Positions 49,408 to 52,614 of a stretch of DNA of 64,000 nt are shown here, piece after piece. The stretch comes from an uncultured Verrucomicrobiae bacterium (GTDB taxonomy: Bacteria; Verrucomicrobiota; Verrucomicrobiia; Opitutales; JABDGR01), in NCBI GenBank assembly GCA_963765205.1, contig CAVXVB010000008.1, forward strand, positions 65,076-129,075, in the 5' to 3' direction. The notes under the pieces were generated by a model. It saw nothing but the letters and a program-made list of their open reading frames with translations, ran no database searches and had not been told where the DNA came from. The first letter of the stretch is position 1. The number at the start of each line of letters is the position of its first letter. Made by a program: the position numbers and the translations under genes.

Positions 49408-49659
49408 TTGGAACACCAACATGTCATGAGCACGCTCTTGTCCCGCATCACGATTGACCCGGAGGTCTGCCACGGCAAGCCCTGCATCCGCCATTTGCGG
49501 TATCCGGTCGAGTCGCTGTTGGAATACCTGGCGGCGGGGGACACCTTTGAAGACTTGCTGGGCGAATTTCCCGATCTGGAACGCGACGACTTGCGCGCCT
49601 GCCTCGAGTTTGCGACCCAATCCCTCAAGCTTAAAAGCCAGCATCTGGTGCTCGCGTGA
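49408..49659 (+). CDS. DUF433 family protein (putative antitoxin-like)
   Basis: ITIDPEVCHGKPCIRHLRYPVESLLEYLAAGDTFEDLLGEFPDLERDDL is a typical DUF433 sequence. Confidence 0.75.
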   Translation: MEHQHVMSTLLSRITIDPEVCHGKPCIRHLRYPVESLLEYLAAGDTFEDLLGEFPDLERDDLRACLEFATQSLKLKSQHLVLA

Positions 49660-50009
49660 AATTTCTGGTGGATGCGCACCTGCCTCCGGGCTTGTGCGCC
49701 CTGCTGCAAGCGGCGGGGCACGACGCCCTGCATACCAGCCAATTACCGGCGGGCAACCAAACCCCCGACAGTTCTCTGAACGAGCGATCCTTGCTTGAGC
49801 ACTGGGTCGTCATCACCAAGGACACGGATTTCTATTATTCGCACCTCCTGCAGGGAAAGCCATGGAAGCTGGTGCTGGTGCGCACGGGCAATATGCGCGC
49901 CCGGGAACTTAAATCGCTGTTTGGACGGCACCTGCCCGCCATTGTGACCGCCCTGGACAAGACTTCGTTGGTCGAACTCGACCGCCAGTCAGTACGAATG
50001 GTGAAATGA
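49656..50009 (+). CDS. DUF5615/PIN-like (Mut7-C-like) protein
   Basis: MKFLVDAHLPPGLCALLQAAGHDALH... with a 4-nt overlap with the DUF433 gene. This pairing is common. Confidence 0.7.
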   Translation: MKFLVDAHLPPGLCALLQAAGHDALHTSQLPAGNQTPDSSLNERSLLEHWVVITKDTDFYYSHLLQGKPWKLVLVRTGNMRARELKSLFGRHLPAIVTALDKTSLVELDRQSVRMVK

Positions 50010-50218
50010 CCTGGCCCCTGGCGGCGCATAAATCGAGGCTCGCCTGCGCGTTTATCAAGATGATTCGGAACCGCAACCAAGGGCAATTGCCTCTGGGGGG
50101 CGGCACCCCCCTGGGTGATGGTGGGATAACACCCCATAGCGGGGGCGGCGCGGTGTCGTTATACTGCTGGTCGCTTCTACCGCCCAAATCATCAACTCAC
50201 AACCCCTCCAGGATTCTT

Positions 50219-50281
50219 ATGATATTTCTCATCGCTGCCATCGCCGTCGCCGTCATCATCGTGGTTCTCGTCGTGAGGTAA
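50219..50281 (+). CDS. hydrophobic mini-protein P1 (20 aa)
   Basis: aggattctt-ATG. MIFLIAAIAVAVIIVVLVVR*. Confidence 0.5.
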   Translation: MIFLIAAIAVAVIIVVLVVR

Positions 50282-50339
50282 CCCCTTGCGCGCCGAAACC
50301 TTTCGGCGCCACCCTGAACCGCCGTGGGTAGGGATTTTT

Positions 50340-50402
50340 GTGATTTTCTTTATCGCTTTCGTGGCCGTCGTCGTCGCGGGGGCGGTCCTCATTTTGAGGT
50401 GA
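50340..50402 (+). CDS. hydrophobic mini-protein P2 (20 aa, GTG start)
   Basis: agggattttt-GTG. (M)IFFIAFVAVVVAGAVLILR*. Confidence 0.45.
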   Translation: MIFFIAFVAVVVAGAVLILR

Positions 50403-50542
50403 TTTTTCACCCAGCGTGCCCCCCCCATGGGGTGCGGTGGGTCAACACCCCCATAGCGCGGGCGCCATTGGAGCGCTATGTTGCTGAACATGTTCCATGA
50501 CTTGCAAACCCAACGCTAAACCCATCCGGGGAAAGGATTTTT

Positions 50543-50614
50543 ATGGTATATTTTATTGTAGTGGTCGCGCTCGTCGTGATTGCCACGGTGCTCGTGGTGA
50601 AGGCGGTACGGTGA
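50543..50614 (+). CDS. hydrophobic mini-protein P3 (23 aa)
   Basis: aaggattttt-ATG. MVYFIVVVALVVIATVLVVKAVR*. Confidence 0.5.
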   Translation: MVYFIVVVALVVIATVLVVKAVR

Positions 50615-50627
50615 ATTCTTTCTCCCT

Positions 50628-51077
50628 TCACGGGAGTTTGGCTTGGACGAGCTTGCTGACGGCGCCGAAATCGAGCAGCGCGGCCTCCGGGCGTTGCTTG
50701 AGCGCGCCGATGACCTTGCCCATGTCCTTCTTCGATTGCGCGCCGGTGGCGGCGATGACCTCGGCGACCAGCGCCTCGAGTTTGGCGGGATCAAAGGGCT
50801 TGGGCAGGTATTTTTCGAGGAGCGCGATTTCGGCGGTGTTGGCGGCCACGAGGTCGGCCCGGCCGCCTTTTTCGAATTCCGCGCGGGCGTCGGCAAGGTT
50901 TTTCACGGCTTTGCGCAGCGTCGTGGTCACGAGGGCATCGTCGATCGGTTTGTTGGCGTCCATCGCGGCGCGCTGGATGGCGGCATCGGCGGTGCGGAGG
51001 CTGAGCGTGGCGGCGGCATCGCGCGCCTTAAGGGCGGTCACAATGTCGGCGCGGAGGGTTTCGTAGGTGGTCGGCAT
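50628..51077 (-). CDS. GatB/YqeY domain protein
   Basis: MPTTYETLRADIVTALKARDAAATLSLR...LLEKYLP... is YqeY-like. Confidence 0.8.
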   Translation of the reverse strand: MPTTYETLRADIVTALKARDAAATLSLRTADAAIQRAAMDANKPIDDALVTTTLRKAVKNLADARAEFEKGGRADLVAANTAEIALLEKYLPKPFDPAKLEALVAEVIAATGAQSKKDMGKVIGALKQRPEAALLDFGAVSKLVQAKLP

Positions 51078-51475
51078 GGGGGGAGGGGAAAGTGTGGAGT
51101 GTGGAGTGTGAAGTATGGAGCGCGGAATGGGAAGTTTTTGAATCCGGGAAATAAATTATCTTGTTTTTGTTCAATGCTTTAAGACCAGCCCAACCTGCAT
51201 TTTACCCAGCCTATTTGACCACAAAGCTAACCTTGGTTTGAATATTCGGGGCAGGGCGAAAAAAATGTCGCCTTGGTGGAACTTTCCTTCCAAACGGGTG
51301 TTTAACTTGGCATCAGGGTGCAAGCCCTGACCAAGGAATACGGCAAATATAGCATAGCAACCAAGCAGCTAGGCAGTGACCCTTGAGCAAGGCCTGCCGT
51401 TTACAAGGCCGGTCGCCGGGGTAACCCGGGGCCGGCCTCTTGCTTGGCAGAAATCAGGAGTGGAGGCAAGCCTTC

Positions 51476-52480: not shown

Positions 52481-52614
52481 ATTCCTGAATGCTGAGTTCT
52501 ACATGCTGAATGCTGAGTTCCGAATGCTGAACGGCGTCGCCAACTGTGGTGTCGAATTATCACCGAGAATCGGTATCCTCCCATTCAGCAATCAGAATTC
52601 AGCATTCAGAAATT
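52481..52614. repeat. stutter-word inverted repeat (gaatgctgaatgctgag family)
   Basis: Left words at 52481-52532, right arm cattcagcaatcagaattcagcattcagaaatt at 52582-52614, in a divergent intergenic region. Confidence 0.65.

Follow-up and report, generated by a model that had tools for sequence, protein, structure and literature searches.

Three very short open reading frames (ORFs) lie in tandem in the 64-kb stretch of DNA studied here (contig CAVXVB010000008.1 of an uncultured Verrucomicrobiae bacterium; the whole stretch is called the window in the following). Like their homologues in related genomes, they form a small, fast-evolving operon array of paralogous peptides of 19-23 residues. 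These mini-ORFs are almost certainly translated into single-helix peptides, whose family is represented in neither Pfam nor NCBIfam, and the element upstream of them is, as far as the DNA alone can tell, a promoter with a palindromic regulatory box and not a transcribed RNA leader. What emerges is a new small-protein family with comparative support, tied to an apparently undescribed regulatory box. We see about an even chance that the peptides are made from small operons under box-dependent, probably stress-responsive promoters and act in the membrane.

Hydrophobic mini-ORFs and their homologues

The three mini-ORFs of the window are the following:

50219-50281, + strand: P1, MIFLIAAIAVAVIIVVLVVR, ATG start, Shine-Dalgarno sequence AGGA at 50210-50213
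50340-50402, + strand: P2, (M)IFFIAFVAVVVAGAVLILR, GTG start, Shine-Dalgarno-like sequence AGGGA at 50330-50334
50543-50614, + strand: P3, MVYFIVVVALVVIATVLVVKAVR, ATG start, Shine-Dalgarno sequence GGAAAGGA at 50530-50537

The coordinates and translations given for P1, P2 and P3 in a preliminary description of this DNA were reproduced exactly. That description had also reported a common AGGAtt(c/t)tt spacer before the start codons; GGATT(C/T)TT does abut all three starts, but P2 has AGGGATTTTT and not AGGA. A six-frame scan of the 64 kb for ORFs of 14-40 codons with at least 75% V/I/L/F/M/A returned P1-P3, one nested start within P3 and one marginal ORF without a Shine-Dalgarno motif. P1-P3 are the only ORFs of the window which pass this hydrophobicity filter and have a Shine-Dalgarno-like motif.

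YqeY homologues place the host in the Opitutaceae (Verrucomicrobiota). With yqeY as the anchor, 80 genomic loci around this gene were fetched, plus further contigs of close homologues. Four related Opitutaceae genomes carry arrays of two to four mini-ORFs (19-23 codons) at the same locus, between ispF and yqeY. L081 (YqeY 96% identical) has an orthologue of P3 and one further ORF, L082-84 (92%) has two mini-ORFs, L002 (89%) four and L003 (86%) three. Every array sits in the interval between ispF and yqeY; it is convergent with yqeY in four of the five genomes (window, L002, L081 and L082) and lies 2.6 kb away from yqeY in L003. Outside the homologous arrays the hydrophobic-ORF filter gave no match in about 620 kb of related Opitutaceae DNA, and arrays were found neither in the other 77 of the 80 loci of the yqeY scan nor in the relatives P0005, P0006, P0009, P0017 and P0023.

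The window and these four genomes (L081, L082-84, L002 and L003) together provide a set of 14 mini-ORFs. None of them is annotated in the records examined; proteins of fewer than 30 residues are missed by gene callers. All 14 align gap-free over 19-23 codons and no copy carries a frame-breaking indel. The second codon position is T in 192 and C in 54 of the 252 codons (98% T/C), and the mean pairwise differences amount to 0.41, 0.27 and 0.65 at codon positions 1, 2 and 3, with the third position as the most variable one. The ratio of nonsynonymous to synonymous differences (pN/pS) is 0.23-0.53 for orthologues and 0.48-0.77 for paralogues. The orthologues of P1 are L082_1 and L003_2 (pN/pS 0.38-0.40), the first L082-84 peptide being 80% identical to P1, and P3 differs from its L081 orthologue MLYFIAVVALVVIATVLVVRAVR by five synonymous and three conservative changes (pN/pS 0.25). 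Length and composition are strictly kept across 40-65% nucleotide divergence: the peptides have 19-23 residues, 79-100% of which are V, I, L, F, M or A, and each amounts to little more than one transmembrane helix, whose short C-terminal end is polar or basic. A GGAAAGGA-like Shine-Dalgarno sequence precedes most of the starts by 5-6 nt.

The gap-free alignment, the codon-position pattern and the pN/pS values of 0.23-0.53 for orthologues therefore make translation of the mini-ORFs almost certain, and the coding signature is best read as purifying selection for a hydrophobic helix. The preliminary description had proposed single-helix mini-proteins under selection at the peptide level in a tandemly duplicating array, and had named frame-breaking indels in relatives as evidence that would speak against this; pN/pS, codon pattern and homologues uphold the proposal. 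Its statement that no described family was recognizable also agrees with our searches of nine of the peptides, in which NCBIfam gave no match at E <= 10 and Pfam only sub-threshold matches to a Class III signal peptide model.

The palindromic promoter box

Upstream of the first ORF, the six units compared share GG..AA.ACC(C)CCAT.G as their sole invariant non-coding block, which is followed at a fixed distance by TAT(A/G)nT or TACGCT. The core of this box can be written as GGTGGG..AACACCCCATAGCG, 18 nt, TAnnnT. The window contains it twice, ahead of P1 (unit 1) and ahead of P3 (unit 3):

50111-50141, + strand: promoter box of unit 1, left arm CTGGGTG (50111-50117) degenerate, with a G-rich insert of about 10 nt
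50120-50141, + strand: right arm and tail of the unit 1 box, GGTGGGATAACACCCCATAGCG (repeat D1/D2)
50160-50165, + strand: -10-like hexamer TATACT of unit 1, exactly 18 nt past AGCG
50427-50458, + strand: promoter box of unit 3, perfect left arm ATGGGGTG (50427-50434), 9-nt insert CGGTGGGTC
50444-50458, + strand: right arm and tail of the unit 3 box, AACACCCCCATAGCG; the orthologous unit of L081 has the same layout
50477-50482, + strand: -10-like hexamer TATGTT of unit 3, 18 nt past AGCG

The unit 1 box is conserved in L082, L002 and L003, and it fits the consensus ATGGGGTGAACACCCCATAGCG obtained from metagenomes as described below. The spacing between box and hexamer is identical in five of the six array promoters: ...AAYACCCCATAGYG, 18 nt, TAnnnT is present in both window units, in L082, in L003 and, with one mismatch, in L081. 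The box of L002 deviates, with ATGG and a 17-nt gap, and among the arrays it is the only one with a near-perfect palindrome ATGGGGTG-AA-CACCCCAT. One further near-match, the only other one in the window, is a partial box GGGTGCGGGAACACCCCATTG on the - strand at 2077-2097, which has no TAnnnT at the expected spacing.

Searching metagenome contigs with the pattern GGGNNAAYACCCCATAGYG-N18-TANNNT gave at least 120 exact matches, compared to about 7 expected by chance according to our own estimate from the information content of the pattern and an assumed collection of about 10^12 bases. The matches (loci L089-L208) are from peat, soil and freshwater metagenomes, and 105 unique sites among the matches listed were anchored on the box for a consensus. 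Positions left free by the pattern are conserved in these 105 sites, both before GGG (A in 68, T in 95 and G in 97 sites) and at the NN positions (T in 85 and G in 74), and the element therefore represents a palindrome ATGGGGTG-AA-CACCCCAT followed by AGCG. The hexamer prefers T at its positions 3 and 4, and the 105 sites have no conserved -35 hexamer. An ATG is found exactly 6 nt past the hexamer in 34 of the 105 sites listed, other offsets occurring 0-8 times each. Transcription would therefore start at this position and a third of the genes would be leaderless; for the same reason we place the putative transcription starts of the window near 50172 (P1-P2) and near 50489 (P3). The centre of the palindrome comes to lie near -42/-43. 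A normal -35 hexamer is lacking, and the palindrome overlaps the -35 region at a position typical of sites bound by dimeric transcription factors. We infer such a site here, with an activator as the simplest case.

The genes behind the box in the metagenomes are diverse. Among 51 downstream proteins scanned, five belong to DUF2934, three are response regulators, two have a BON domain and two are DUF5670/lmo0937-type membrane proteins. PAS sensor proteins, sensor kinases and two omega-subunit-like proteins were also found, and one each of an ECF sigma factor, a fatty-acid desaturase, CsbD, YflT, DUF3300, DUF2950 and PilZ. Half of the complete products downstream of the matches listed have 100 residues or fewer. 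In four loci (L097, L101, L114 and L129) a leaderless 26-residue peptide, MST(L/I)LII(V/L)L..L(F/L)GGGGGYYY(T/S/N)RRR, begins about 6 nt past the hexamer; it matches the N-terminal half of Pfam DUF3309 (E = 2.6e-5) and represents a half-size version of this two-repeat small membrane protein. L156 holds a frameshifted copy of the same peptide. To judge by CsbD, YflT and BON, this mix of genes resembles the general-stress regulons of other phyla, and by this analogy the box seems to mark a regulon of the stress type in which small proteins are frequent. A literature search for the box sequence and for verrucomicrobial promoters or stress regulons returned nothing relevant among the papers covered.

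The box was also compared with an RpoH-type -10 (CCCCAT), an ECF-type -35 (TGAAC) and a sigma-54 site, and these assignments were rejected, as the partner positions they require are not conserved. TAnnnT, 18 nt past AGCG, is the sole conserved element downstream of the box.

With the starts predicted above, the box region of both window units would not be transcribed from these promoters. This bears on the leader of about 130 nt which the preliminary description had assigned to P1 and P3: the two units do share a repeat (50106-50169 and 50422-50486), but it does not represent a transcribed structured leader. The hairpin said to covary within it, AUAGCG/CGUUAU in unit 1 and CAUAGCGC/GCGCUAUG in unit 3, lies in the 18-nt promoter spacer, overlaps the hexamer and is upstream of the putative transcription start. 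Across the six array promoters its pairing reaches 76% compared to 73% in shuffled sequences, 85 of 500 shuffles do as well, and only two cells of the alignment change on both sides. Three of its eight pairs join ATA of the conserved box to TAT of the hexamer, both of which are conserved for other reasons, and in only 3 of the 105 metagenome box promoters listed can all three informative inner pairs form. The covariation is not significant, and we do not regard the hairpin as a functional RNA structure.

The predicted 5' untranslated regions (5' UTRs) are C/A-rich and measure about 47 and 54 nt, lengths which depend on the putative starts. The predicted transcripts fold no better than shuffled sequences (z = -1.27 and -1.76), and in the centroid fold of the transcript for P1 and P2 the Shine-Dalgarno site stays free of pairing. 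Rfam searches, with relaxed E-values for the region and with gathering thresholds for the whole window, returned nothing relevant.

Within unit 3, an ATG located 7 nt past the hexamer opens a nine-codon ORF, MFHDLQTQR (50496-50525, + strand). Its counterpart in L081 (about 2411-2437, - strand) has the ATG at offset 9, begins similarly with MLHDRQTQ... and extends into the P3 start region in a different frame. This ORF may be a leaderless upstream mini-ORF or merely conserved DNA.

Turnover and surroundings of the arrays

A single box promoter stands ahead of four ORFs in L002, three in L003, two in L082 and P1 plus P2 in the window, and P3 carries a promoter copy of its own. P2 lacks such a box and is probably transcribed together with P1. 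The spacers between the ORFs measure 55-130 nt and, except for the Shine-Dalgarno motif, are not conserved between genomes. The array of the window is on the + strand, with a DUF433/DUF5615 pair on one side and the convergent yqeY on the other, as the preliminary description had stated; nothing lies downstream of the array in its own direction. The remaining features around it are:

49408-50009, + strand: DUF433 gene (83 aa) and DUF5615/PIN-like gene (117 aa), overlapping by 4 nt
50290-50309, + strand: inter-ORF palindrome GCGCCGAAACCTTTCGGCGC without a T-run (repeats D5 and I9)
50387-50409, + strand: terminator-like hairpin CCTCATTTTGAGG with a T-run, overlapping the P2 stop codon
50622-50636, no strand given: weak hairpin CTCCCTTCACGGGAG between P3 and the yqeY stop codon
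50628-51077, - strand: yqeY (GatB/YqeY domain protein), the convergent neighbour of the array

The weak hairpin at 50622-50636 may serve as a terminator for both directions. A 99-residue ORF on the minus strand opposite P1 and P2 (50192-50491) was rejected as spurious, being the hydrophilic mirror of NTN codons, uncalled and not conserved in L082.

The number of copies per array ranges from two to four, and traces of the underlying duplications are still visible. L081 has inside its array (2560-2615, - strand) a copy of the P3 terminator together with about 50 nt of the yqeY 3' end, fused to the last 35 nt or so of a decayed P2. The window retains a shorter piece of the yqeY 3' end (GCGCCGAAA...) after P1 (50286-50310), and the palindrome at 50290-50309 is probably part of such a duplicated fragment. 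Because 3' end fragments of yqeY are duplicated within the arrays, the array would grow by tandem duplication of a unit which spans the junction between array and yqeY.

Lineage-specific insertions are found around the array in three genomes: the DUF433/DUF5615 pair in the window, a LamG-like gene in L002 and an ABC transporter in L003. The DUF433/DUF5615 pair has the look of a type II toxin-antitoxin module; its insertion point lies between ispF and the array, and L082-84 and L003 have no such pair at this position. The transporter genes of L003 (4458-6913, - strand) encode an ABC ATPase of 269 aa and a multi-pass membrane protein of 549 residues; they share the strand of the three-ORF array and lie about 170 nt downstream of it. 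The 549-residue protein has a weak match to PF16962, 'putative ABC exporter', at E = 8e-5, below the curated cut-off. As a conserved partner of the arrays the transporter does not hold, as it is absent from the window and from all other loci (one of five genomes).

Short tandem and inverted repeats flank yqeY and its neighbours in intergenic DNA of the window (51085-51120 and 52485-52610). The one upstream of yqeY reads GTGTGGA GTGTGGA GTGTGAA GTATGGA; the second region holds two copies of CTGAATGCTGAGTTC and a partial third, CGAATGCTGAAC, with an inverted AATTCAGCATTCAG close by.

Function of the peptides and comparison with known systems

According to the reading we favour, the array would be switched on together with the box regulon. 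The box, derived from the palindrome ATGGGGTG-AA-CACCCCAT-AGCG, would stand in for the -35 element and be bound by a dimeric factor, likely an activator, and transcription would begin about 6-7 nt past the TAnnnT hexamer. Each ORF would have a Shine-Dalgarno site of its own for translation, on a leader that is short, C/A-rich and unstructured, and the peptides would insert into the cytoplasmic membrane with the C-terminal Arg or Lys probably staying inside. The helix by itself could account for the action of such a peptide, be it on the properties of the bilayer or on a partner protein in the membrane, and the copies would be redundant within an array that expands and contracts by tandem duplication.

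Several findings weigh against this reading. Arrays are missing from several equally close relatives and are therefore dispensable. The first ORF of L082 (4661-4685, - strand) has no recognizable Shine-Dalgarno sequence (…CCTAGCATTCATCCT ATG). The left arm of the palindrome is displaced about 10 nt upstream in unit 3 and L081 and degenerate in unit 1 and L082. Within about 680 kb of Opitutaceae DNA, the box core has no copy outside the arrays. Mini-ORFs of this type follow none of the metagenome box sites listed, and the sole metagenome locus that could be placed taxonomically, the long locus L116, is closest to the class Verrucomicrobiia and not to Opitutae (its zwf is 89% identical to that of a 'Verrucomicrobiia bacterium' metagenome-assembled genome). 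The regulon may therefore be small or different in this organism. Finally, the tests run do not discriminate between a membrane modulator and a toxin.

The preliminary description had interpreted the locus as type I toxin genes with structured leaders. In this case the peptides would be membrane-depolarising toxins, comparable in size and hydrophobicity to Ibs or to the stress-induced TisB and DinQ, and would be held in check by antisense RNA, either a small RNA that escaped detection or read-through from the convergent yqeY across P3. The peptides are indeed small, extremely hydrophobic and tandemly duplicated, a stress-type promoter fits the TisB/DinQ paradigm, and the patchy distribution and rapid turnover resemble toxin-antitoxin loci. 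In addition, yqeY ends 13 nt from P3 and the intervening hairpin has no U-run on the yqeY strand, so that antisense read-through is plausible; it would be possible in four genomes but not in L003 with its 2.6 kb between array and yqeY. However, the box is common to at least 120 non-toxin genes, and in L003 and L002 three to four ORFs follow one promoter, which does not agree with toxin genes as separate transcription units. The short, C/A-rich 5' UTRs predicted here show no unusual structure, the Shine-Dalgarno site being unpaired in the P1-P2 centroid fold, and the spacers contain no conserved inter-ORF block. A consensus scan, which could miss an RNA, detected no promoter-like site on the minus strand, Rfam gave no match at the array, and Ibs, Ldr or other toxin models do not match. 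The type I interpretation is weakened by these results and we regard it as somewhat disfavoured, though still conceivable. Equally tentative is a wider proposal, according to which the peptides are a new family of stress-induced, membrane-active dormancy or toxin peptides, wired into an undescribed verrucomicrobial general-stress regulon whose master regulator binds ATGGGGTG-AA-CACCCCAT and drives mostly leaderless small-protein genes.

The remaining alternatives are less probable. Translation might act only in cis, stabilising or regulating the transcript (for example by interference with yqeY), or the array might be near-neutral duplicated DNA. Dispensability in close relatives, the decayed copy in L081 and the convergence with yqeY in four of five genomes would suit this view, but pN/pS is below 1, the 14 copies are free of frame-breaking indels, length and composition persist despite 40-65% nucleotide divergence, and the L003 array does not adjoin yqeY; we consider it unlikely. 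Export or release of the peptides, as a signal, surfactant or leaderless bacteriocin-like product, is suggested by the psm-alpha-like layout, in which one promoter serves several consecutive ORFs of about 20 residues with separate Shine-Dalgarno sequences, and by the ABC ATPase and 549-residue membrane protein (the weak PF16962 match) after the L003 array. A transporter is present in only one of five genomes, however, the peptides are uniformly hydrophobic and not amphipathic, and modification or immunity genes are not found nearby, which leaves little room for this explanation. Attenuator leader peptides of the ilvL/ivbL type, sensing charged tRNA for Ile, Val, Leu or Ala, would explain a composition dominated by V, I, L and A. 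This is refuted in practice by the gene order and retains hardly any probability: nothing is downstream in four of five genomes, where the convergent yqeY follows directly, and the only downstream genes, those of L003, encode the ABC transporter and not a biosynthetic operon. A conserved alternative terminator/antiterminator pair was not seen. The preliminary description had already judged a leader-peptide role unlikely, and the gene order agrees.

With this locus the Verrucomicrobiota, a poorly studied phylum, gain a family of membrane peptides of 19-23 residues that is comparatively well supported. The box, with its conserved palindrome, fixed promoter geometry and frequent leaderless starts, offers a handle for finding the regulator, and it yields testable predictions of transcription starts in organisms with almost no transcription data.

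Among known systems, the Ibs/Sib loci of E. coli resemble the array in their peptides of 18-19 residues, which are almost purely hydrophobic and encoded in tandem intergenic copies. Each Ibs gene, however, is matched by a Sib antisense RNA which is complementary to it throughout and has a separate promoter, whereas the array has no antisense element that we could detect, its ORFs share a promoter and sequence similarity is absent. The SOS-induced TisB/IstR-1 and DinQ/AgrB systems likewise combine a single-helix peptide with a promoter carrying a stress-regulon operator. They differ in the long structured 5' UTRs of tisB and dinQ, which block translation until processed, and in the small-RNA gene nearby; the UTRs of the array are predicted to be about 50 nt long, C/A-rich and unstructured, and no small-RNA gene is evident. 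The psm-alpha operon of Staphylococcus aureus has a similar layout, a single regulated transcript carrying four ORFs of about 21 residues in tandem and a ribosome-binding site for each of them, but phenol-soluble modulins are amphipathic and are secreted by the Pmt ABC exporter, while a transporter adjoins the array in one genome only.

DUF3309 and DUF5670 (lmo0937-type) are, like the mini-ORF products, tiny hydrophobic proteins in which a hydrophobic stretch is followed by basic residues, and DUF3309-like peptides (MSTLLIIxLxxLLGGGGGYYYxRRR, 26 residues) as well as DUF5670 proteins are encoded behind the same palindromic box in metagenomes. The mini-ORF peptides match neither of the two Pfam models, are shorter and lack the Gly-rich/Tyr motif; unlike the DUF3309-like genes, they are preceded by a leader and a Shine-Dalgarno sequence instead of being leaderless, and they are arrayed. 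The half-site ATGGGGTG matches no site known to us. The arrangement of the box, in contrast, is that of class II CRP/FNR-type promoters (about -41.5), where a palindrome likewise replaces the -35 element at a fixed distance from the -10 hexamer.

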